From Minisyncoccota bacterium (GTDB lineage: Bacteria; Patescibacteriota; Minisyncoccia; 2-02-FULL-40-12; GWA2-44-9), in the NCBI GenBank assembly GCA_018062285.1, contig JAGOSO010000001.1, positions 100,137-164,136 on the forward strand: DNA of 64,000 nt. Direction: 5' to 3'. Below the pieces are notes generated by a model. The model was not told where the DNA came from. It made no database searches and saw only the letters and a program-made list of their open reading frames with translations. Within the stretch, counting starts at the first letter, position 1, and the number at the start of each line of letters is the position of its first letter. Of the stretch, positions 1,553 through 56,316 are shown piece after piece. Made by a program: the position numbers and the translations under genes.

Positions 1553-2116
1553 CTAGTTCTTTGCCCAGCTGGAGCTATCAACCCGGAAGAGCCACTGACG
1601 CTCTTCGCGGAATACGATCTCAGGGCGACCCGAATCAAGAGACATCGTGTTGCCACCACGAATCTCGAAAAGAAGAGTGTGCGAGTGGGGTTTGGCCACA
1701 CCATCATCACCAATCTCTTCGATCGGCTCACTGGCAATGAGAACATCGGTGAATGGCGACCGATTGTAGCCACCATCGGGAATGAGGAGCTCCCAACCTG
1801 CTTGGGGGTGACACTCTTGCAGTCCGACTTCACGGGCCCGGCGGTAAATGGCCGAACGGCGATTGGAACCACGCAAGCCGATGTCTCGGGCCGAAACAAT
1901 CACGTACTTGTCCATCGATTTTTCTGTGACAAGCCCAACACCGCTTCTGGCCAAAAGCTCAGTGGCCCGATCTTCAATAATCGCCCCAAACTTCTTACAC
2001 TCAGCGACAAACACCGCTTTGCTAACCCAGGGGTAAAGCGTGATCGGGAATCCACCCGAAACAATCCTCGCGTGAATAACTCTTCTTTCTTCCAGCATTT
2101 CCTCTAGCGGCGTCAT
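1553..2116 (-). CDS. Hypothetical protein in a GC-rich island (about 55% GC versus about 43% flanks)
   Basis: 187-aa ORF; the opposite strand also has a 198-aa ORF (1511-2107), as often seen in GC-rich DNA; the minus frame sits co-directionally between yqeY and ybeY and reads more protein-like; no family recognised. Confidence 0.45.
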   Translation of the reverse strand: MTPLEEMLEERRVIHARIVSGGFPITLYPWVSKAVFVAECKKFGAIIEDRATELLARSGVGLVTEKSMDKYVIVSARDIGLRGSNRRSAIYRRAREVGLQECHPQAGWELLIPDGGYNRSPFTDVLIASEPIEEIGDDGVAKPHSHTLLFEIRGGNTMSLDSGRPEIVFREERQWLFRVDSSSWAKN

Positions 2117-6108: not shown

Positions 6109-6711
6109 CTAAATCGGATAAGTAAACCCTGGAATTTTTGAAAACTTAGAAAATGGCCAAAGACGGATATAGGCCCTACCAGTAATCAATGACTTATTCA
6201 GCGCGCCCCAAACTCTTGAATCAGAACTTTTCATACGGTTATCTCCCATCACAAAGTAATCATTGTCATCCATCTCAACACGCATGTTACCAAGAGTTTC
6301 CTGGCCAGGATCTAGATACGTTTCATTAAGGGTTACACCCTCAGGGTGCTTGTCATTATAGATGGTGACCCTATTGTCTTTTATCTCAACAGTATCGTTA
6401 GGCATACCGATAATTCTTTTTATAAAAAACTGAGACTGATCCAAAGGATAACGAAAAATGATAACGTCGCCACGGCGCGGACTACCCAATTCATATGATA
6501 ATTCATCAACGAAAATATAATCCCCATCCTTGAAATTTGATTCCATTGAGGCACCTTTAACAAAAAACGGCTGAACAACATAATACCGGATCGGTAAAAT
6601 AATAATCAGCGAGATGGCAACAATCTTAATTGTCTCCCAGAAAAAAGCAGCGATTTCGCTCTTTAGGCTAGGCTCATTTTCTATCATGTCTGTCCTGTTT
6701 TCTTGTTCCAT
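6109..6711 (-). CDS. lepB: Signal peptidase I
   Basis: N-terminal TM; GASMESNFKDGD (catalytic Ser region), FIKRIIGMPNDTVEI, GDNRMKSSDSRVWG boxes. Confidence 0.9.
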   Translation of the reverse strand: MEQENRTDMIENEPSLKSEIAAFFWETIKIVAISLIIILPIRYYVVQPFFVKGASMESNFKDGDYIFVDELSYELGSPRRGDVIIFRYPLDQSQFFIKRIIGMPNDTVEIKDNRVTIYNDKHPEGVTLNETYLDPGQETLGNMRVEMDDNDYFVMGDNRMKSSDSRVWGALNKSLITGRAYIRLWPFSKFSKIPGFTYPI

Positions 6712-7352: not shown

Positions 7353-7934
7353 TTGGTTATGGCAACAACAAAACTAATTGTAGGAATCGGCAATCCAGAT
7401 GCAGAATACCAAGGAACCAGACACAACATCGGGTTTATGTTTTTGGATTACTTGGCTAAAAAGATAGACGCTAATGACTTTGCAGAAGATAAAAAACTAA
7501 ACGCATTGGTCTCTAAATCAAAGATCGAGAAGACTCCAGTCGTTTTGGCTAAGCCCTTATCATATGTAAATAAGTCCGGAGATGTTGTGGGCAAGATGGC
7601 CAGATTCTACAAAGTAAAAGCTAAGGATGTCATTGTTGTTCAAGACGACTTAGATATTGAATTTGGTTCATTCAAGAACTCTTTTGAAAAGAATTCTGGT
7701 GGCCACAAGGGTGTTGAATCTATAATTAAGGCCCTAAAGACAAACAAATTCTTCCGTTTACGAATCGGCACTTCTGTCAGAGCCCTAGAAAAAGCCCGCG
7801 AACAATCAGACAAAAAGAGAGATGCTTTTGTTATGGATTTCGTTCTGGCCAAATTCACACCCAAGGAACAAGAAACGATTAAGAAAATGTTCCCTGAAGT
7901 CTACGCTCGCCTACTAGAACTCCTCAAGCAATAA
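7353..7934 (+). CDS. pth: Peptidyl-tRNA hydrolase
   Basis: LIVGIGNPDAEYQGTRHNIGFMFLDYLA N-terminus is diagnostic. Confidence 0.95.
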   Translation: MVMATTKLIVGIGNPDAEYQGTRHNIGFMFLDYLAKKIDANDFAEDKKLNALVSKSKIEKTPVVLAKPLSYVNKSGDVVGKMARFYKVKAKDVIVVQDDLDIEFGSFKNSFEKNSGGHKGVESIIKALKTNKFFRLRIGTSVRALEKAREQSDKKRDAFVMDFVLAKFTPKEQETIKKMFPEVYARLLELLKQ

Positions 7935-7942
7935 TTTAACCA

Positions 7943-7976
7943 AACTAAAACCCGCCACATCGGCGGGTTTTAGTTT
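7943..7976. terminator. Bidirectional intrinsic terminator between convergent genes
   Basis: AAACTAAAACCCGCC-acat-GGCGGGTTTTAGTTT. Confidence 0.7.
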
Positions 7977-7991
7977 GGTTACCAAAGAAGA

Positions 7992-8678
7992 CTAATTGTC
8001 GCCAATTCTCTTCTTTAATTGACCAATGGCTTCTTCAGCATGACGAGCGCCACCAAGACCAAAGGAAAGACCAATGGCCAAGGAGATAGCAGCAATCAAA
8101 CCAAGAATGACATATTTGATAACATCATCAGCAACTTTAAGCTGAACCAATGCGATCAATAAACCAAAGACAAATACAGCCCACTTGGTTAAGGCGCCAA
8201 GGAAGTTAGCAGAAGCCAACCCGGCTGCCCTAACAGAACCCTGAACGATGCCTTCCAAGAACTTAGCAACCAAGATACTGACCAACAAAATGATTGCTGA
8301 AATTACCACATTCGGAATGTAGTAAACAACACTTTGAAGGAAATTGGTAACTTCAGTTAAACCTAAGATGTTGGTGGCGGCCATCAAGAACACGATAACA
8401 AAGAACCATTTTACTAATTCGCAAAATAGTTTTGGAGTGTCCAAGCGGAATCCACTTTTTTCCCAAGCTCTACGGAAACCAACTTTCGTTAATGCGTTAT
8501 CAATGTGTAAGACTCGGACAATATGATAGACAAGCTTACCGAGCAATACAGCTACTAACCAACCAATCAAAAATACTACTAAGGCAGCAACGAGGCGCGG
8601 AATAAAGCCGGCCACGCTAGACCAAAGAGTAAGCAAAGAACCCTGAACGATATCTGATGCTTGTAATACTTCTAACAT
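7992..8678 (-). CDS. Multi-pass membrane protein (TM-helix repeat / MscS-N-terminal-like)
   Basis: 228 aa, five or more hydrophobic helices, repeated GLxxVxNFLxxL-like segments. Confidence 0.55.
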   Translation of the reverse strand: MLEVLQASDIVQGSLLTLWSSVAGFIPRLVAALVVFLIGWLVAVLLGKLVYHIVRVLHIDNALTKVGFRRAWEKSGFRLDTPKLFCELVKWFFVIVFLMAATNILGLTEVTNFLQSVVYYIPNVVISAIILLVSILVAKFLEGIVQGSVRAAGLASANFLGALTKWAVFVFGLLIALVQLKVADDVIKYVILGLIAAISLAIGLSFGLGGARHAEEAIGQLKKRIGDN

Positions 8679-11442: not shown

Positions 11443-11518
11443 TGGTGGACCCTGCCGGGTTCGAACCGGCGACCTCCTCATTGCAAATGAGGCGCTCTAC
11501 CAACTGAGCTAAGGGCCC
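11443..11518 (-). tRNA. tRNA-Ala(UGC)
   Basis: GGGCCCTTAGCTCAGTTGGTAGAGCGCCTCATTTGCAATGAGG...CCA; G3:U70 Ala identity pair; anticodon loop TTTGCAA; CCA encoded. Confidence 0.9.
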
Positions 11519-11531
11519 TAACTTCCTTCTG

Positions 11532-11603
11532 TGGGTGCGGAAGGAATCGAACCTTCGACCTCGTTCTTATCAGGAACGCGTTCTACCACTGAACTACGCA
11601 CCC
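11532..11603 (-). tRNA. tRNA-Ile(GAU)
   Basis: GGGTGCGTAGTTCAGTGGTAGAACGCGTTCCTGATAAGAACG...; anticodon GAT; cloverleaf closes; no encoded CCA. Confidence 0.9.
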
Positions 11604-14919: not shown

Positions 14920-15717
14920 TTAGAGGTTACCATCGATCTCCCTGGCAACAGCTTCCACCATGTCGTGGGTAGTTAAAATATTTCCATCCTCATCCCTCTC
15001 CACGCCTAAGGTTATCGAGTACTTTTTGTCAGTCGATAGCACCGTAAGGCGATCGTCGTACCACGCAGCGGTAGCGCCCAGACCAGAAACTATTGTGGGA
15101 GCTGGTGGATATGTGGTGTTAATACCCCCTCCACCAACTTTCTCGCCGGCATATTCTGTTTGCCATTTTATTTCGGAATTAAAGGCCTCTTCTGCACTGT
15201 AATTACTCCAAGTTATAATATAGAGAAGTTGCCCAACCATTGCTCCGACAGACGATCTTTTATTTTTTGGATCCACATAAGAACAGATGACTTGTTTAAC
15301 TCCCGCCTCGACCACTTGATCACCCGCACCTTCATGACCAGGCAAAGCATTTAAACCAGCCACGGCCAAACCTTCTCCTTGCTGAATGAGCTCATAGTCA
15401 GCAGGATTCTTACCGGTAATTTGCTGGAATTTATTGTCAGGTAAAAGGTCTCTGCACTTTAATGAACCAGTGCTTTTTGAGGTTGGCAAACCCAAACTAC
15501 TCAGGCCAGAAGAAGGCTTATCAAAAAACATAAAATAAGCACCTACCCCAAGAACCATAACGATAACCCCACCAATAATCATACCAAGAGGTTTAATGCC
15601 CATCCCCCTGTCGCCTTGTAGCGGGTTAATTTGTGGCATGGCAGGCTCCGGCATTAATGGTTGCACTGGTGCTTGCTCCTGAGGCATTATTGGCTGGTTT
15701 TGTATTGGTTCGTCCAT
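14920..15717 (-). CDS. Membrane-anchored protein with Pro-rich N-terminus (paralog 1)
   Basis: MDEPIQNQPIMPQEQAPVQPLMPEPAMP then one TM and a roughly 200-aa C-terminal domain; N-terminus and 5' flank duplicated at 15759-16253. Confidence 0.7.
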   Translation of the reverse strand: MDEPIQNQPIMPQEQAPVQPLMPEPAMPQINPLQGDRGMGIKPLGMIIGGVIVMVLGVGAYFMFFDKPSSGLSSLGLPTSKSTGSLKCRDLLPDNKFQQITGKNPADYELIQQGEGLAVAGLNALPGHEGAGDQVVEAGVKQVICSYVDPKNKRSSVGAMVGQLLYIITWSNYSAEEAFNSEIKWQTEYAGEKVGGGGINTTYPPAPTIVSGLGATAAWYDDRLTVLSTDKKYSITLGVERDEDGNILTTHDMVEAVAREIDGNL

Positions 15718-15758: not shown

Positions 15759-16253
15759 TTAAAGAAAAATAAAAATAACTAAAATTGGATTTAAATCTTC
15801 AAGGGTAAACCTGGGTAATCCTGTCCCTGAAACACCAAAAACACCATATGTATACGAGCAAACACCAATCCACATTAAAATCTCAAAAAATACCCTCGTG
15901 AATAAAAGGCTCTGGTTACTCATATTTCTCGCTTTCATAATCACCCGTATAAGAATTAAGATAACCGCTGACCAAAAGAAAAAGGCTACTCCGGTAGCGA
16001 CTATTGCTCTATTTGTAATTTGTAATGCCAAACAACCAAACCCCTCACTAAGGGCACAGGGCTCTGGCAAAGTAATACTCATTCTGTAAATTAAAAATCC
16101 AGCCGCACTAATAAATCCTATTACCCGTAAGTACAGAAATAAATGCTTACTCATTCCCCCGCTTGCAGGCATAGCAGGTTCAGGCATTACTGGTTGTTGC
16201 ACTGGTGCTGGCTCCTGAGGCATTATTGGCTGGTTTTGTATTGGTTCGTCCAT
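15759..16253 (-). CDS. Polytopic membrane protein with the same Pro-rich N-terminus (paralog 2)
   Basis: MDEPIQNQPIMPQEPAPVQQPVMPEPAMP then four TM helices; unrelated C-terminus. Confidence 0.65.
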   Translation of the reverse strand: MDEPIQNQPIMPQEPAPVQQPVMPEPAMPASGGMSKHLFLYLRVIGFISAAGFLIYRMSITLPEPCALSEGFGCLALQITNRAIVATGVAFFFWSAVILILIRVIMKARNMSNQSLLFTRVFFEILMWIGVCSYTYGVFGVSGTGLPRFTLEDLNPILVIFIFL

Positions 16254-22387: not shown

Positions 22388-23851
<1,464 letters not shown>

Positions 23852-24160
23852 CTTAAGAAATCTGAACTACTAAAAAATAGTACAGAAAATTTGCTGCTTA
23901 ACTATATGAAATTGACAATGTTCTTTCATTAATTTCGCCTTTGCGAAAGTAGCTCTGCTGACCCTCTCTAAAGAATAGCAGAACCACGACTTTCCTCGGC
24001 AATCCAAGGCCAGTCGTGGTTTAACTATGTGTCTAATTGTGTGGTAGTAAAGATTGGGTCTCTAAGGTCCAAATCACTACTAAACTTGATGGTTCCTTTA
24101 TTATACTCGCCGATAAAAAAGAGTCAAGGCCCAGCGCGCGAACGCACTGGGCCCAAAGGC

Positions 24161-35198: not shown

Positions 35199-35243
35199 GT
35201 CTATAATATTACATTAATACTCAAGAAAGACCAACAAAAAATG

Positions 35244-35316
35244 TGTCGGCGGCAGGAATTGAACCTGCGACCTGAGCGTTATGAATGCTCCGCTCTAACC
35301 CCTGAGCTACGCCGAC
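35244..35316 (-). tRNA. tRNA-Met(CAU), elongator type (tRNA-Ile2 lysidine alternative not excluded)
   Basis: GTCGGCGTAGCTCAGGGGTTAGAGCGGAGCATTCATAACGCTC...; anticodon CAT; G1-C72; no initiator features; A31-C39 mismatch in the anticodon stem. Confidence 0.8.
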
Positions 35317-35348
35317 ATTTTGTAACGATAAAATTCTAACGCATTTTC

Positions 35349-35376
35349 TTGATTATTTCAATGGTAGTGGTATAAT
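35349..35376 (+). promoter_or_regulatory. Sigma70-like promoter for tRNA-fMet
   Basis: TTGATT-16nt-TATAAT ending 15 nt before the tRNA 5' end. Confidence 0.55.
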
Positions 35377-35391
35377 GATTAGAGTAATTAT

Positions 35392-35463
35392 CGCGGGGTA
35401 GCGCAGCGGTAGCGTGCTGGGCTCATAACCCAGAGGTCGTGGGTTCGAATCCCACCCCCGCAA
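35392..35463 (+). tRNA. Initiator tRNA-fMet(CAU)
   Basis: CGCGGGGTAGCGCAGCGGTAGCGTGCTGGGCTCATAACCCAGAGG...CCCCGCAA; C1-A72 mismatch and three G-C pairs (GGG/CCC) in the anticodon stem; close to E. coli fMet. Confidence 0.9.
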
Positions 35464-35472
35464 CAACACTTT

Positions 35473-36309: not shown

Positions 36310-36795
36310 TTACTCGCCAGAAATATTGGCTTGAAGATTGATTGAGCTTGCATTGACGCGAGCATCACAAGCGACGTTAACAATCTTTGGAGCTGAAGGA
36401 CTTGAAACGGTAACAACTTTGTAACCGTAAGCACCGAGAGGATAAGCCATACCACTGATAGTAACGGTAATCGCTTTGTTCATACGGTTGTCCAACAAAA
36501 GACTTCCACCACTCTTAAAGACCATTGAAGCAGGAATAGCCTGACAGTCGTTAGTAAACTGGATTCGGTTTGCACCGTATTGAGCAACGAGCTGACTATA
36601 GGAAGGCATGACCGTTGCAACGGGAGTCGTAGTGGCTCTAGGATTTACTGAGGTGGCTGGTGTCTTTGTGGCCATCATGGTTGGAGAGGTGGTGGTACCT
36701 GGATTCAAAGAAACACCAGATTTATCACCCTCAACAAACCATACAGCGATAGCAACAACAACGATAGCTAAAATAATTGTCCAGGTTTTGTTCAT
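36310..36795 (-). CDS. Secreted/membrane-anchored Thr-rich hypothetical protein
   Basis: N-terminal TM, Thr/Pro linker, 161 aa. Confidence 0.55.
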   Translation of the reverse strand: MNKTWTIILAIVVVAIAVWFVEGDKSGVSLNPGTTTSPTMMATKTPATSVNPRATTTPVATVMPSYSQLVAQYGANRIQFTNDCQAIPASMVFKSGGSLLLDNRMNKAITVTISGMAYPLGAYGYKVVTVSSPSAPKIVNVACDARVNASSINLQANISGE

Positions 36796-36909
36796 CGAGA
36801 TAAATTAATAATAAATTTTAAATTAAAACCAAGTTCGACCTTTTAAATATTATAACAGATTCCACCACAAACATCGCAAACATTTATCCACTATTTAACT
36901 ATTAAAAAT

Positions 36910-36936
36910 GGGCGCCTCCTCTTTCGAGTGGCGCCC
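36910..36936 (-). terminator. Terminator of the OMP-like gene
   Basis: GGGCGCC-13nt-GGCGCCC hairpin with a T-run on the minus strand. Confidence 0.6.
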
Positions 36937-36965
36937 TGTAACCATGCAAGCATGGCTACAATGCC

Positions 36966-38093
36966 TTAGAACCAGATGCCAACAGACAACATCGGTGACC
37001 ACACCGACATGTTGGTCGTCCGAGGCTTAAACACTCCGCGACCGACGGCGTACGGATCCGAGATCACGTAGCCCGGCGCGGTCGGCGCATTGCTCAGCGA
37101 TGACCTCGCCACGCTCAGTCCAATATTCAGGACGGAATTCGAAACGCGAACCCGCAACTTGAGACCGACCTTCATATCGATGGCGGTAGTAGTCTTCTTG
37201 ACCGTCTCCGCGTACGGCATGGCTGTCGGTGCCCAGTTCAGATGCGCGAGTGTCTGTGTCGGCGTACCATTGACACCACCGGACGACGCCGTCAGGTAGA
37301 TGTCCTTGGTCGCTTTAAACAACCCATCGGCCTTGGTTCCGCTCCCCCATGGGAATGTCGCCACGGCCAACCGACCGTCAATCGACAACCGGCTGAAGAG
37401 GCAGTACTCCCCTTCGATTCCACCGGTCAGTCCGAAATGAGTCGACTTCGCGGTGGCCATCGAGGAATAGTTGTAGTCCTCACGGATTGCCTGAGCACTG
37501 ATCGAGCGATCGCTGTTCAGCGTATAGAGCAGGAAGTTCTGCGACCGGGCCAGGTCTTCCGAGCTTTCGACTCGCAGAACCGGAACGCCGGCGAAGAACG
37601 AGAACGTTCCTTCCGACAACCCGACCGTGTAGTTCAGCAGTGCATCGAAGCGTGTAACTTTCGCGCTCGACTTCTGACTGTACCCCACGGGACCATAGAG
37701 CACCGGCGCCGAAGAAACGATCTTCGGCGTAGCGTCGGGCCCCCAGGTCTTGATCTGTCCGTCGGTCTGTGCGACCGAACTGTTCAGATCGTTGCTCGAC
37801 CCGAAGCGGTAGAATCGCACTTCCCCGCCAAAACCATTCACCGGTTTACGACCAATGAACGCCTGGACGAAGGAATTGGCCTTCGCGTCGTCCCCGACAA
37901 TCTTGTCGCCGGACGACGAATGGATGGAACCGATCGGCTGAATCAACCCATCGGTCTTCACCAAGCCAGCCGGGGCAAAATCGCCTCCGATGACCCAGTT
38001 GTTCACCTTCACCGGCGCCTGCTGCGCCTTCGCCACACCCGCCGTGAGGACCATCACGAGAACCGCCGAAACTACGAGGACCATCTTGTTCAT
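36966..38093 (-). CDS. Outer-membrane beta-barrel (porin/OMP-like) protein in a strongly GC-rich island (about 60% GC)
   Basis: Signal peptide MNKMVLVVSAVLVMVLTAGVAKA-QQAP; 375 aa rich in G/S/T/N with alternating amphipathic segments; C-terminus ...MLSVGIWF, a terminal-Phe beta-signal typical of Gram-negative OMPs; the antisense Arg-rich 318-aa ORF is rejected. Confidence 0.6.
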   Translation of the reverse strand: MNKMVLVVSAVLVMVLTAGVAKAQQAPVKVNNWVIGGDFAPAGLVKTDGLIQPIGSIHSSSGDKIVGDDAKANSFVQAFIGRKPVNGFGGEVRFYRFGSSNDLNSSVAQTDGQIKTWGPDATPKIVSSAPVLYGPVGYSQKSSAKVTRFDALLNYTVGLSEGTFSFFAGVPVLRVESSEDLARSQNFLLYTLNSDRSISAQAIREDYNYSSMATAKSTHFGLTGGIEGEYCLFSRLSIDGRLAVATFPWGSGTKADGLFKATKDIYLTASSGGVNGTPTQTLAHLNWAPTAMPYAETVKKTTTAIDMKVGLKLRVRVSNSVLNIGLSVARSSLSNAPTAPGYVISDPYAVGRGVFKPRTTNMSVWSPMLSVGIWF

Positions 38094-38180
38094 AACGTCT
38101 CCTTGGCCATCATGGCCACAAAACCTTCAAAAAATGCCCTGTTTGTTATAGAACTACCAGATATTAAATATATCACTTTT

Positions 38181-38217
38181 TTTATAAAAAGTCAATAGCG
38201 GGTTGACTTTTTATAAA
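38181..38217. promoter_or_regulatory. Perfect 15-bp inverted repeat (candidate operator) in the divergent promoter region
   Basis: TTTATAAAAAGTCAA-tagcggg-TTGACTTTTTATAAA between the OMP-like gene (minus) and the DksA/TraR gene (plus); TTGACT doubles as a -35-like hexamer. Confidence 0.5.
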
Positions 38218-38269
38218 TTATGGTATACCATAGACAAGCACCTTAACACAGACGATAGGGAAGGAATAT

Positions 38270-38704
38270 ATGACAATCGACAGGAAAGAAAGAATAGCCA
38301 TCCTCATCCAAATGGAACACAACTTGGGCCCTGTAACAAAGAAGCCCACCAGTCTGTTCCACTCGAAAGACACGGCCGGTATCGGAAAGGATATTTGTGA
38401 TACCGCCAACAACTACATCGAGGAAGAAGAAAGGCTCAGGTCTGCCGGAGAGAACACAAGGAAACTCAATCTCGTCCGTGCCGCACTTCGACTTTTCGAT
38501 ACTGGCTGGGACGGCACATGCCGTGAGTCGGATGACAGGGGTACCCCCTGTGGAAACGAAATCTCGGATGCTCGCTTCCAAGCTCTCCCCTATGCCACGA
38601 TTTGTCGGTATTGCCAGGAGGAGAAAGAAAAGAAAGAGAAGGAGCATGGCACCCGCAAGCCTGAAAACAGGCACGGAGGCAAACCCAAGCACTCCTTCAC
38701 GTAG
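38270..38704 (+). CDS. DksA/TraR-family zinc-finger protein (Cys-poor variant)
   Basis: ...TPCGNEISDARFQALPYATICRYCQ matches CxxC-x17-CxxC of DksA with the first Cys replaced; GGAAGGAA RBS. Confidence 0.8.
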   Translation: MTIDRKERIAILIQMEHNLGPVTKKPTSLFHSKDTAGIGKDICDTANNYIEEEERLRSAGENTRKLNLVRAALRLFDTGWDGTCRESDDRGTPCGNEISDARFQALPYATICRYCQEEKEKKEKEHGTRKPENRHGGKPKHSFT

Positions 38705-38890: not shown

Positions 38891-38977
38891 GGAAGCGTGG
38901 CTGAGTGGTTGAAAGCACCTGATTCGAAATCAGGCATAGGGGCAACCTTATCGGAGGTTCGAATCCTCCCGCTTCCG
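38891..38977 (+). tRNA. tRNA-Ser(CGA)
   Basis: Type II tRNA with long variable arm; anticodon loop TTCGAAA; discriminator G. Confidence 0.9.
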
Positions 38978-39021
38978 CAGCGTCTTGGAAAAAGCCAAGA
39001 CTTATGGCAAAATAGTGTCTT

Positions 39022-39109
39022 GGAGAGGTGGCCGAGTGGTTTAAGGCAACGGTCTTGAAAACCGTCGTACAGCAATGTACCGTGAGTTCGAATCTCACCC
39101 TCTCCGCCA
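39022..39109 (+). tRNA. tRNA-Ser(UGA)
   Basis: Type II tRNA; anticodon loop CTTGAAA; CCA encoded. Confidence 0.9.
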
Positions 39110-50751: not shown

Positions 50752-51216
50752 TTAATCGATAACTTTAGCGACTGAAATGTTTCGCTGTTGTTCCGATACA
50801 TGTTCTATCTTAATTACCCAATGGTTTCGGGGAAGAATATCCCCCACTCTCTCGGCCCACTCCATCAAAACAATCACGCCAGGTTGGTTAATAATTTCTT
50901 TTGTTCCGAGCGGAATCAAATCAGCGGAACTATTTAAACGATAGCAATCAAAATGATAGAGCGTTTGATAATTAGGAATATCTTTTAAAGAATAGTGTTT
51001 CATCAAAACAAATGTTGGGCTCTTTAGATTTTCTTTGACACCAAGAGCTTTGGCAAAGGCTTGAGTGAAAGTTGTCTTGCCAGCACCAAGCTCACCTTCT
51101 AGGGCAATCACAAGTGGTTGACCGTTAGCTTCCTTTATAAGCAAAAGTGCCTGCTCGCGAGCAAAGCGCTGAGTATCTTCCGGGCTGTAAGAGACGTGGT
51201 TCATTGGTGTCATCAT
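50752..51216 (-). CDS. tsaE: tRNA threonylcarbamoyladenosine biosynthesis protein TsaE
   Basis: ALEGELGAGKTTFTQAFAKALGV P-loop; start taken at MMTPMNH (the tracked N-terminal extension runs into the neighbouring GC-rich DNA). Confidence 0.8.
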   Translation of the reverse strand: MMTPMNHVSYSPEDTQRFAREQALLLIKEANGQPLVIALEGELGAGKTTFTQAFAKALGVKENLKSPTFVLMKHYSLKDIPNYQTLYHFDCYRLNSSADLIPLGTKEIINQPGVIVLMEWAERVGDILPRNHWVIKIEHVSEQQRNISVAKVID

Positions 51217-51261
51217 ATCTTTTTTATCTTCATGTTTCAATCTATTTTTTGTATTTAAATA

Positions 51262-51306
51262 CCCCGCATTTCTGCGGGGCGTGGACCGTGGCCGAAGCCA
51301 CGGTCC
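51262..51306 (-). terminator. Tandem GC hairpins downstream of the Pro-rich gene
   Basis: CCCCGCA-tttc-TGCGGGG and GGACCGTGGC-cgaa-GCCACGGTCC. Confidence 0.5.
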
Positions 51307-51314
51307 CAAGGGTG

Positions 51315-51944
51315 TCAGCGACAGACCTGGGACGCTTCGTCCCAAAACTCTGCCGATGAAAACCCCTGCGCGTTGTACCACTCCTTGCATCCATCCCTCC
51401 CGAGACCATCGGGGGCCGGACGAACGTCGCGGAACTGGGGCTGGTTCGAAGTGACTCGAACCGTTTCCTCAGTCTGCGCCGCCGAGCGCTGGGCCGGAGC
51501 CGTGGTCGCCACAGGGGCGGCCAAGGTCATCGTCGGCTGGATACCTCTTCCAAAGAAGAGCCAGCCGAGCACCACCAGCGTCAGGGCCACGATGGCCACG
51601 ATGGCGGCCGCTCCAAGACCATTCCCACTAACGCTGTTGGCGTTGGCGGTATGGACATGGATCCGAGGCGACTGAAACGCCGCGGAGGCGCGGTAACCCG
51701 GGGCGGGTGGCGGGCAAACCGGAGGGGCAGGCGGTGCCGGACGAACCGGAGCAACCGCGGGACGCGGTGCCCGTGCCACGCGACGCACCGGAGGTGCGGG
51801 TGGCGGTGCGCCAGCGGGGGCCGGAGCAGCAGGCGGGGCGGGTGGACGGGGCGGCACACCACCTGCAGCAGCGGGTGCTACGACAGGCGGAGCAGGACGG
51901 GGCGGAAGTCCTCCGCCAAGAACGGGTGCGGGTCTACGGGCCAT
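51315..51944 (-). CDS. Pro/Ala-rich membrane protein in a very GC-rich island (about 65-70% GC)
   Basis: MARRPAPVLGGGLPPRPAPPVVAPAAAGG... about 90-aa PA-rich low-complexity N-terminus, one TM, C-terminal Cys-containing domain; multiple antisense ORFs rejected. Confidence 0.5.
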   Translation of the reverse strand: MARRPAPVLGGGLPPRPAPPVVAPAAAGGVPPRPPAPPAAPAPAGAPPPAPPVRRVARAPRPAVAPVRPAPPAPPVCPPPAPGYRASAAFQSPRIHVHTANANSVSGNGLGAAAIVAIVALTLVVLGWLFFGRGIQPTMTLAAPVATTAPAQRSAAQTEETVRVTSNQPQFRDVRPAPDGLGRDGCKEWYNAQGFSSAEFWDEASQVCR

Positions 51945-51958
51945 GATCTGTGTCTCCT

Positions 51959-52426
51959 CTACTTGACGCTGGCGACTTGCCAGCCATAGTTGCGGACGTA
52001 TTCGAGTCGGACAGATCGGTCATCGATCAGCCCCTCAGTCCGTGCTGCGTTGGTCGTCGGCACATAGTGCGTACCAGTGACCTTCCATTGTTCGACTAAA
52101 CTCCAGTGAGACCACGTTGCCGGCCCCAACTGCTTGCCCCCGGGTCTCACGACCCCGAAGCAGACATCAACACCGGAAATGCGATCGGTAATGATAAACA
52201 TCACCGGCACATTTGCCAAGGTGTTATCGTACCACTCCACCTCGTGGTTACCGCGCAGGCGCGGATCCCAGCAAGATGGAACGACTGGCATCGGGGCAGG
52301 CCGAAGATTCGGCGCGTCCCGATAAACCTGACGGTTCGGCGCGACTTGCGGGGAAACCTTCCCCGCACAGGCGATGACCGACATGGTCACCAGAGCTAAA
52401 ACCACGAGCCGGACGAAAAACCTCAT
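51959..52426 (-). CDS. Putative lipoprotein in a GC-rich island (about 60% GC)
   Basis: Signal peptide with lipobox-like VIAC-AG; 155 aa. Confidence 0.5.
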   Translation of the reverse strand: MRFFVRLVVLALVTMSVIACAGKVSPQVAPNRQVYRDAPNLRPAPMPVVPSCWDPRLRGNHEVEWYDNTLANVPVMFIITDRISGVDVCFGVVRPGGKQLGPATWSHWSLVEQWKVTGTHYVPTTNAARTEGLIDDRSVRLEYVRNYGWQVASVK

Positions 52427-52626
52427 GTGAACCTCCTAAATGCTCGCGCAAGCTGCGCCGAGCGAGACCGAAAATGATATTCAATTGTGAAGTTACTTAC
52501 CCTTCACTGTATACATACATTATAGCACTTTATAGGTATTTTGTAAAGGGCCAAAAAACCAACAAAAATAAGCCTTTTTAAGGCCTAAAAATAGACAAAG
52601 TTTCATTCGAAACATTCTTTGGTTCC

Positions 52627-55959: not shown

Positions 55960-56316
55960 CTATTCCGCACACTTAATGCAAAAACGGGCTGTAGGCACCT
56001 CAAGGAGTCTTTCAAGGGGGATATCTATGCCGCACTTCTCACAAACGCCATAGCGGCCATTTTGGAGCTTCTCATGGGCTTCTACAATATCTTCTAAACG
56101 ATGTTTTAGTTCCTGTTCGACGGCAGTGTTGTTTTCGGTCATGGTTGCTTCACGAACAATATCATCTTCACGAACATCTCCGTCATATTGTGCCGGCTTT
56201 GGCTGGAAGCCACCAGAAGCAGGATCAATAACAGCAACATCACTAAGCTCTTTTCGGACAAGGGCTTCTTCTTTAACCAGCAATTCTTCTAGTGTTTTTA
56301 GATTTTCTTGGTTCAT
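55960..56316 (-). CDS. DksA/TraR-family C4 zinc-finger protein
   Basis: YGVCEKCGIDIPLERLLEVPTARFCIKC = CxxC-x17-CxxC. Confidence 0.8.
   Translation of the reverse strand: MNQENLKTLEELLVKEEALVRKELSDVAVIDPASGGFQPKPAQYDGDVREDDIVREATMTENNTAVEQELKHRLEDIVEAHEKLQNGRYGVCEKCGIDIPLERLLEVPTARFCIKCAE

Follow-up and report, generated by a model that had tools for sequence, protein, structure and literature searches.

Patescibacteria (the Candidate Phyla Radiation, CPR), for which Minisyncoccota is the current phylum name, are treated as monoderm in reviews and in models of outer-membrane loss (PMC11665869, PMC6744442, bioRxiv 10.1101/2021.05.31.446380). What, then, is a gene for an apparent outer-membrane protein (OMP) of the beta-barrel type, much richer in G+C than the DNA around it, doing in a 64,000-nucleotide stretch of Minisyncoccota DNA (hereafter the window)? 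For comparison, the loci of 10 homologues were retrieved from assemblies of Patescibacteria and 'Candidatus Pacebacteria', one species record of the latter (taxid 1618469) being placed in this phylum by NCBI. These homologues include members 24–40% identical to the window protein; the loci of the syntenic relatives are labelled L001, L002, and so on, and counts of 11 include the window copy. The comparison indicates that the protein is very probably a native barrel and not a recent import. The patescibacterial character of the window's gene content, remarked on in an earlier note on this DNA, is borne out by the patescibacterial names of a metagenome-assembled genome (MAG) protein, to which the window's 155-residue protein (51959–52426) is identical, and of the barrel-bearing GTDB genome.

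The open reading frame (ORF) starts with ATG and reads from MNKMVLVV... through MNKMVLVVSAVLVMVLTAGVAKA/QQAP... to ...MLSVGIWF, confirming the frame of 375 residues, running from MNKMVLVV...AKAQQ to ...SVGIWF, that had been described earlier. A signal peptide was assigned by a heuristic, and comprises a basic n-region, a 12-residue hydrophobic core (mean Kyte-Doolittle value 3.3), and A-K-A followed by Q at residues 21–24. A23 and Q24 are invariant among the nine close homologues, and nearly all family members carry an A-x-A (or V/F-x-A) signal-peptide site before Q; the heuristic and this conservation together support the Sec signal peptide that the earlier note had claimed. A gene for an S26 signal peptidase is present in the window at 6109–6711. 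At the opposite end, the C-terminal Phe beta-signal also claimed there is kept across the family, with a terminal F found in 21 of 22 members, and the exception ending in RF followed by a five-residue tail. The protein thus combines a heuristically assigned Sec signal, a predicted closed beta-barrel, and an aromatic-ended C-terminal beta-signal, the features of a classical OMP assembled by the beta-barrel assembly machinery (BAM). A 318-residue antisense ORF (37242–38198, opposite strand) was rejected as a gene: it is not conserved, is much shorter in the orthologues, and meets 2–10 stops in the matching frame of every copy, and open runs of at least 300 codons arise in 12% of synonymous-codon shuffles.

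The beta-barrel assignment made at the outset is supported by a structure model, by fold matches, and by family matches. AlphaFold2 applied to a nine-sequence alignment gave an all-beta model in which single strands of the hairpins reach 35 residues (predicted local distance difference test score, pLDDT, 79.6; predicted template modelling score, pTM, 0.76). In Foldseek the best matches of this model were chains A, B, and C of 9nh1 (E 5e-9 to 3e-8), with omptins and OpcA next; the modelled fold is that of the solved Legionella major OMP. Pfam returned one weak match for the window protein, to PF05150 (Legionella_OMP; E 1.9e-4, 20.9 bits, residues 95–325), and the same family is matched by 11 of 22 family members at E ≤ 0.01, the best at 1.6e-8, without any use of the structure model. 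In the strands D-M-K-V-G-L-K-L-R-V-R-V (306–317) and W-S-P-M-L-S-V-G-I-W-F (365–375), hydrophobic residues alternate with polar or charged ones, as is expected where a membrane barrel encloses a polar lumen. The protein is therefore predicted to be a barrel of roughly 10–12 long strands, of the class of the Legionella major OMP, OpcA, and the omptins. It is not a new kind of molecule but a divergent relative of a known fold family. Apart from DksA/TraR matches, neither the barrel nor its neighbours belong to any NCBIfam family. Residues about 112–135 (window about 37689–37760, minus strand; WGxDATPKIVSSAPVLxGPVGY) are among the most conserved stretches of the barrel, and overlap the sole internal segment of the AlphaFold model with a pLDDT below 50 (residues 112–127); they may act as a plug or make contact with another component.

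The family is narrowly distributed. Nine homologues were found among 5.8 billion clustered proteins, and an exhaustive profile search of 1.84 billion representatives returned 20 cluster representatives at E ≤ 1e-3; outside the clade, the only match at the 1e-3 level was a stretch of ~45 residues in one repetitive 899-residue protein (E 4.5e-7). Among GTDB representative genomes, only one has a barrel homologue ('Patescibacteria group bacterium'). As far as the contigs reach, the gene occupies the identical syntenic slot in 11/11 loci, and the four longest of the relatives' loci (L001, L003, L011, and L012) match the window gene for gene across 13–21 kb. In the relatives the order is PolA, Fpg, DUF3048, holA, glycosyltransferase, RecG (minus strand), a ~193-residue gene (minus), two tRNA-Ser genes, and a DksA/TraR-like gene (minus) divergent from the barrel (plus), followed by a ~160-residue membrane-anchored gene and, further on, M16 peptidase, AI-2E transporter, methylase, MetRS, TatD, and LeuRS; the window has this order in reverse orientation. 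The barrel gene is a single-copy gene fixed at one position in a narrow clade of Patescibacteria ('Ca. Pacebacteria'). Neither an integrase nor flanking direct repeats are present at the barrel. Of the marks of a genomic island, atypical composition and codon usage are seen here, whereas patchy presence, mobility genes or repeats, and a composition that decays towards that of the host with divergence are not. A lineage-specific insertion of ~7 kb with a serine recombinase was observed in L015 (2709–11492), between the ~160-residue gene and M16.

The GC-rich island reported in the earlier note was confirmed, the barrel having a G+C content of 0.585 against 0.431 in the remaining window. By codon position, the values for the barrel are 0.53 (GC1), 0.48 (GC2), and 0.74 (third positions, GC3), the last compared with about 0.40 elsewhere in the window. 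In 200-nucleotide windows the G+C content steps from 0.31–0.37 outside to 0.57–0.61 at the edges of the ORF, and only one other island of comparable size exists in the 64 kb, at 51.1–52.5 kb. All 11 copies share the property (G+C 0.57–0.62, GC3 0.72–0.81, in surrounding loci of 0.41–0.49 G+C). Averaged over 10 loci, G+C is 0.29–0.49 upstream, 0.58–0.67 inside the coding sequence, and 0.29–0.44 beyond the 3′ hairpins, and GC3 is flat along the coding sequence (0.73–0.82 from about codon 9). Steps placed at the start and stop codons indicate that the effect is tied to the coding region.

The codons preferred in the barrel are the rarest of the genome, and the set is the same in all copies: GCG (0.51 in the barrel, 0.08 in the background), CCG (0.78 and 0.12), TCG (0.49 of Ser codons, and 0.13), ACG (0.33–0.49 and 0.09), CTG (0.45 and 0.07), and CGG (0.33 and 0.06). 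In most pyrimidine-ending codon pairs, the C-ending member is preferred, and CpG observed/expected is 1.34 versus 0.82. At four-fold degenerate sites of conserved residues, the window and L001 are identical at 0.32–0.47 in housekeeping genes (chance 0.27–0.33) and at 0.39–0.43 in the barrel (chance 0.30–0.32); with identity near chance, synonymous positions have turned over essentially completely. Under the mutation bias of the genome, whose equilibrium GC3 is about 0.4, a foreign composition would be expected to have largely disappeared by then. Saturated synonymous sites, together with a GC3 that has not decayed in any lineage, lead to the rejection of an unameliorated recent transfer and make the composition a maintained property of the gene. 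Thus, the composition of the barrel is actively maintained and is not a relic of transfer, and the earlier proposal of a horizontally acquired porin still carrying its donor's composition fails on this point and on the shared slot. The gene may have entered the ancestor of the clade by an ancient transfer.

The second sharp island (51126–52551, G+C 0.60) is a two-gene operon on the minus strand, encoding a lipoprotein-type protein of 155 residues and a Pro/Ala-rich protein of 209 residues. It uses the same rare codons as the barrel, and its sequence has a promoter, leader-hairpin, and double-terminator design like that of the barrel. The orthologue of the 155-residue gene in L010 is also GC-rich (GC3 0.71), and the C-terminus of the 209-residue protein, which has no Pfam match, is conserved in an orthologous ORF at L010 6924–7556. 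AlphaFold gave a pLDDT of 53 for the lipoprotein, from three sequences. L010 also has an extra, lineage-specific GC-rich ORF of 209 residues after the second island (7780–8409). In the window, a smaller GC-richer patch (1501–2126, 0.54) has ORFs that overlap on both strands, with an ambiguous coding strand; one of them (1553–2116, minus strand, 187 residues) is without a Pfam match.

The signals that flank the barrel gene were compared in the same loci. Its full promoter pattern is matched exactly at this one site of the window and, with 1 mismatch, at one other, and TTGACT (TTGACG in L003) followed by a TG-containing extended −10 element such as TGATATACT is kept in 11/11 loci. From these sequences, the barrel appears to be transcribed alone, from a conserved near-consensus promoter. 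The leader measures 60–81 nucleotides across loci and carries an ACAAYCAGRG-like box, which occurs nowhere else in the window. In 10/11 loci, a G+C hairpin directly preceding a strong ribosome-binding site was read from folds and sequences, with stems that differ between loci (GGCCA/TGGCC, GAGGCC/GGCCTC, GGGG/CCCC, and CTGCC/GGCAG). MAFFT alignments of leader and trailer were too poor for covariation counts, and hairpins were judged from individual folds; no Rfam match to a known RNA element was obtained in leader or trailer at E ≤ 1.

Downstream, the earlier note had proposed an AT-rich terminator belonging to the gene; a terminator is present, but its stem (GGGCGCC...GGCGCCC) is G+C-rich, and a simple terminator scan missed it because of its 13-nucleotide loop. 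Another hairpin precedes it, the 88-nucleotide trailer folds at −34.3 kcal/mol, and the two-hairpin layout is found in 8/10 folded loci, the second stem differing in sequence. The promoter, the leader hairpin, and the two 3′ hairpins together suggest an abundant and stable barrel mRNA. A conserved box, TAGTGGATAAAT (about 36880–36895), lies 10–40 nucleotides past the barrel terminator and before the promoter of the ~160-residue gene, with the same position in L002–L005, L013, and L015, and is possibly the binding site of a regulator.

Upstream, the perfect operator-like palindrome of the earlier note is real as a repeat, with arms TTTATAAAAAGTCAA (38181–38195) and TTGACTTTTTATAAA (38203–38217) that are made of the −35 boxes of two divergent promoters and A/T tracts. 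Its interpretation as an operator was not upheld: the majority of relatives have kept the GTCAA...TTGAC pair, with a spacing that varies from about 2 to about 40 nucleotides, so that a fixed dimeric operator was rejected in favour of back-to-back promoters, which fit better.

The barrel protein diverges several times faster than its housekeeping neighbours. Genes such as those for RecG, LeuRS, M16, and Fpg are 63–91% identical between relatives and the window; in the nearest relative, L001, the values are 86% (RecG), 90% (LeuRS), 89% (M16), and 91% (Fpg), and RecG ranges from 73 to 88% across relatives, the lowest value belonging to the most distant, L012. The barrel is 60, 56, 54, 49, 49, 46, 40, 31, and 27% identical to that of the window in nine genomes (a comparison without L015), with an overall range of 26–60% against the window and values of up to 68% between other pairs. 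The other fast-evolving genes are the neighbours of the barrel, namely the ~160-residue (46–61%), ~193-residue (35–54%), and DksA-like (27–35%) genes. The barrel tree also conflicts with the M16 tree: L004 and L011 are 83% identical in M16, whereas the L004 barrel is 68% identical to that of L003 and 27% to that of L011. This incongruence has the signature of allelic replacement by recombination at a surface-antigen locus, with alleles apparently exchanged between lineages. Conservation among close orthologues is fairly even (0.55–0.81 per 15-residue block), and discrete hypervariable loops, which were sought in the barrel, could not be defined, the variation being spread evenly along the protein.

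Table 1. Positions in the window of the barrel gene, its signals and neighbours, and the second GC-rich operon.
Feature	Position	Strand	Basis or composition
Barrel coding sequence, 375 residues	36966..38093	-	G+C 0.585, GC3 0.74
Signal peptide, residues 1-23, predicted signal peptidase I cut between AKA and QQ	38025..38093	-	Heuristic: hydrophobic core and AxA motif
C-terminal strand SPMLSVGIWF, alternating hydrophobic residues, terminal Phe, beta-signal-like	36969..36998	-	Sequence
Barrel promoter: TTGACT, 17 nucleotides, TG-n-TATATT (extended -10)	38167..38195	-	Promoter scan, 10/12 matches and TG
Barrel 5′ leader, about 67 nucleotides: ACAAACAGGG box; hairpin GGCCATGATGGCC, 38105-38117; Shine-Dalgarno AAGGAG, 38099-38104	38094..38160	-	
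Two tandem 3′ hairpins (36937-36960, then 36910-36936); the second, followed by a T-run, is an intrinsic terminator	36904..36960	-	Inverted repeats, folds
Perfect inverted repeat, 15-nucleotide arms, 7-nucleotide spacer, holding two divergent -35 boxes	38181..38217		Repeat finder
Candidate promoter of DksA/TraR-like gene: TTGACT, 17 nucleotides, TACCAT	38203..38231	+	Promoter scan, 9/12 matches
DksA/TraR-type zinc-finger gene, divergent	38270..38704	+	Pfam PF01258; NCBIfam matches far below cut-offs; GC3 0.61
tRNA-Ser(CGA) and tRNA-Ser(UGA)	38891..39109	+	ARAGORN, Rfam
161-residue protein: N-terminal membrane anchor, Thr/Pro-rich linker, beta-rich C-terminal domain	36310..36795	-	ORF
Second operon, gene 1: 155-residue protein, lipoprotein-type signal (…SVIAC)	51959..52426	-	G+C 0.58, GC3 0.69
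Second operon, gene 2: 209-residue Pro/Ala-rich protein, one membrane helix, Cys-containing C-terminal domain	51315..51944	-	G+C 0.69

Several neighbours accompany the barrel (Table 1). The divergent DksA-like gene is moderately GC-rich and only 35% identical to its L001 orthologue, where other neighbours are about 88% identical. The upstream neighbour is a Pfam zf-dskA_traR gene in L001, L002, L006, and L011, where the upstream side was retrieved, and a small divergent ORF without a Pfam match in L012 and L015; the DksA-like gene of the window may encode a regulator specific to the barrel locus. A second DksA/TraR-type zinc-finger gene in a conserved slot (55960–56316, minus strand) has an ordinary composition. 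On the other side, the 161-residue gene is of normal composition (GC3 0.38), and its product has no Pfam or NCBIfam match. Its orthologues were detected by tblastn in 9/9 other loci searched, mostly directly downstream of the barrel; one small ORF intervenes in L001 and L011, the match in L006 is weak and on the opposite strand, and in L015 the gene after the barrel, of 158 residues, is similar at both termini. The tRNA-Ser pair is also found beside the barrel locus in L001, L002, L003, L011, and L012, and its tRNA-Ser(CGA) decodes UCG, the main Ser codon of the barrel.

Further features of the window were noted in passing. The 16S rRNA gene (22389–23858, minus strand) is solitary, with 23S and 5S not detected in the 64 kb, and a tRNA-Ile(GAU)/tRNA-Ala(UGC) pair, whose usual place is the rRNA spacer, lies 11 kb from it among protein genes (11443–11603, minus). 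Two tRNA-Met(CAU) genes stand head to head, 75 nucleotides apart (35243–35464), an arrangement kept in L001, L011, and L012. Two adjoining ORFs of unassigned function (14920–15717 and 15759–16253, both minus) have near-identical Pro/Gln-rich N-termini starting MDEPIQNQPIMPQE, and are probably tandem paralogues.

What function would account for these observations? The barrel is proposed to be the lineage's own major outer-envelope protein, which would leave the cytoplasm through Sec, lose its signal peptide by cleavage after AKA, and use its C-terminal beta-signal to enter an outer lipid-containing layer, where it could serve as a small diffusion channel and as a scaffold exposed at the surface. 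Its rapid change would be driven by contact with phages, hosts, or competitors, and the odd codon set would be kept by selection on the coding mRNA, the likely targets being mRNA stability or decoding by little-used tRNAs for G/C-ending codons, for a very abundant protein. As a whole, this proposal, namely a native, abundant, and surface-exposed barrel resembling the Legionella major outer-membrane protein (MOMP), located in the cell's own envelope, diversifying with allele exchange, and under selection on its codons or mRNA, is judged probable by a narrow measure.

Several points weigh against this proposal. Patescibacteria have been described as monoderm and without PilQ, TonB-ExbBD, and OmpM-type porins (PMC11665869; PMC6744442; PMC12102498; bioRxiv 10.1101/2021.05.31.446380). 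In about 60 ORFs of the window, the Pfam assignments were confined to housekeeping functions (e.g., signal peptidase, LysM-M23, and M16 peptidases), with no Bam, Tam, Lpt, Lol, Tol, or TonB gene, and no Bam, Tam, Lpt, Lol, or Tol family appears in the Pfam lists of the retrieved relatives' loci. This inspection covered the window and the mostly syntenic DNA of relatives, a fraction of the genome, so that the absence of Bam/Lpt-type genes cannot decide on an outer membrane; the outer layer of the lineage is itself a prediction from sequence. Regarding the fold, the window protein's score lies below the gathering threshold of PF05150 (25.4 bits), and on its sequence it is a divergent relative of that family and not a curated member. 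The structure model rests on nine sequences only, and leaves strand number, pore size, and hydrophobic belt unfixed. A profile of the 22-sequence family, like phmmer, matches nothing meaningful among PDB sequences, which, set beside the Foldseek matches, places the known OMPs far from the barrel in sequence but near it in fold. High expression is read from signals only. Finally, the presumably well-expressed genes for rpsU, GAPDH, PNPase, and pyrophosphatase have an ordinary GC3 (0.36–0.44), so that the codon set of the barrel is not explained by ordinary translational selection.

A bolder version of the proposal is put forward tentatively, as something possible though doubtful. The clade would have a second, outer lipid-containing layer, either inherited from a diderm ancestor or built anew around a gene acquired long ago. 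This layer would be populated by a single MOMP-like barrel, abundant and hypervariable, that is assembled by a cryptic or BamA-independent route. The barrel, the lipoprotein, and the Pro-rich membrane protein of the second operon would be encoded in a dedicated, selectively maintained GC-rich codon set, separating their expression from that of the AT-rich genome.

The alternative that survives best leaves the barrel native and concerns only its codons: the GC-richness could be non-adaptive, arising from biased gene conversion at a recombination hot spot or from exchange with a GC-rich allele pool. The incongruence of the barrel alleles with neighbouring M16 fits this view, as does the fast-evolving and moderately GC-rich DksA-like neighbour. 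There is also a precedent, since exchanged surface-antigen loci can keep a persistently atypical composition, as in the low-GC O-antigen clusters of enterobacteria. However, the enrichment is very large (about +0.35 GC3) and stops sharply at the start and stop codons, whereas heteroduplex tracts would reach into the leader, the trailer, and the 161-residue gene; that gene is equally variable, and yet has its ordinary GC3. Databases show no GC-rich reservoir. Non-adaptive enrichment is therefore considered rather unlikely, and selection on the coding mRNA is preferred.

A different destination for the protein has less in its favour. Once secreted, the barrel could lodge in the outer membrane of a Gram-negative host or prey cell, whose BAM would read the terminal Phe, and there form a nutrient channel for the epibiont. 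Patescibacteria are described as monoderm epibionts that need host nutrients (PMC11665869), no assembly machinery was found in the DNA examined, and rapid evolution would suit a host-interaction protein. However, the unfolded protein would have to cross the wall of the epibiont and the outer membrane of the host to reach the host periplasm, no secretion-system or chaperone gene is linked to the locus, and a strong, constitutive-looking promoter with a stabilised mRNA suits a bulk structural protein. This destination is regarded as improbable compared with placement in the cell's own envelope.

Recent acquisition of a foreign porin, with the GC-richness as an unameliorated signature of a donor of about 60% G+C, would explain why composition and codon usage resemble those of such a genome, and GC-richer ORFs unshared by relatives, such as that of L010, do exist. 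It is nonetheless very improbable in the face of the common slot, the saturated synonymous sites with unchanged GC3, the lack of more than a partial match outside the clade and of flanking integrase or repeats, and a G+C step exactly at the edges of the coding sequence, next to a promoter and leader that are native and AT-rich. An artefact of binning or taxonomy, by which the contig would come from an ordinary diderm with an unremarkable OMP, is hardly credible either: although all sources are metagenome assemblies, two independently deposited MAGs are named as patescibacterial, the barrel lies in contiguous DNA together with 16S and housekeeping genes, the same gene order turns up in assemblies of no fewer than nine different samples, none of the other genomes searched contains the family, and the composition anomaly would stay unexplained regardless.

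Literature searches turned up neither an account of OMP-type barrels in CPR nor one of such a composition anomaly. What is new is, first, the setting, a conserved core barrel gene in a phylum regarded as being without outer membranes and their proteins, and second, a composition that is bounded by the coding sequence, far from that of the genome, stable through saturation, and common to a second envelope operon. The barrel, being native, conserved, and to all appearances highly expressed, and having kept its beta-signal, gives a concrete lineage and protein for testing the monoderm assumption. An outer layer, if it exists, would be relevant to how diderms became monoderms in Terrabacteria and to barrel assembly without the usual machinery. 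The gene is also a natural case of a coding sequence about 35 GC3 points off its genome after complete synonymous turnover, which amelioration theory does not predict, and with it, selection on mRNA or codons could be told apart from biased gene conversion in bacteria. For island-finding software it is a caution, in that atypical composition here does not equal recent transfer.

Among characterized proteins, the closest counterpart is the major OMP of Legionella pneumophila (PF05150; PDB 9nh1, the 'porin I' seen with the Dot/Icm machine), with about 14% identity to the barrel. The patescibacterial barrel exceeds it by about 100 residues, and has very long strands and a conserved segment (112–135) that the model leaves unplaced; its host phylum is regarded as monoderm, and its gene keeps a GC-rich codon set. 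The Neisseria adhesin OpcA and the omptins (OmpT and Pla) are barrels that protrude far above the membrane. To these the window barrel has no detectable sequence similarity, the likeness being one of modelled fold only.

Among envelopes, the toga of Thermotogae, bacteria that have BamA, is an outer layer consisting largely of beta-barrel arrays (PMC10160955). It demonstrates that a single abundant barrel can dominate the outer envelope of a member of the Terrabacteria, and is a possible model for a layer with barrels in a lineage that lacks the classical outer-membrane markers. No homology of the barrel to toga proteins was seen, and the patescibacterial barrel layer is a prediction from sequence.

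In its gene layout, the barrel resembles abundant envelope proteins made from long-lived mRNAs, of which ompA and S-layer genes are typical: E. coli ompA has 5′ leader hairpins, and S-layer genes have long structured leaders. Like these, the barrel gene is monocistronic, has a strong promoter and strong 3′ hairpins, and carries a hairpin beside the ribosome-binding site in its long leader, the stability of its mRNA being predicted; unlike these, it adds a shift in base composition over the whole coding sequence. In its evolution, it resembles the O-antigen and capsule clusters of enterobacteria, which are hypervariable surface loci at a fixed position, with exchanged alleles and an unameliorated composition. 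Unlike those low-GC clusters, however, the barrel is GC-rich in an AT-rich genome, and consists of a single structural gene whose anomaly is bounded exactly by its coding sequence.

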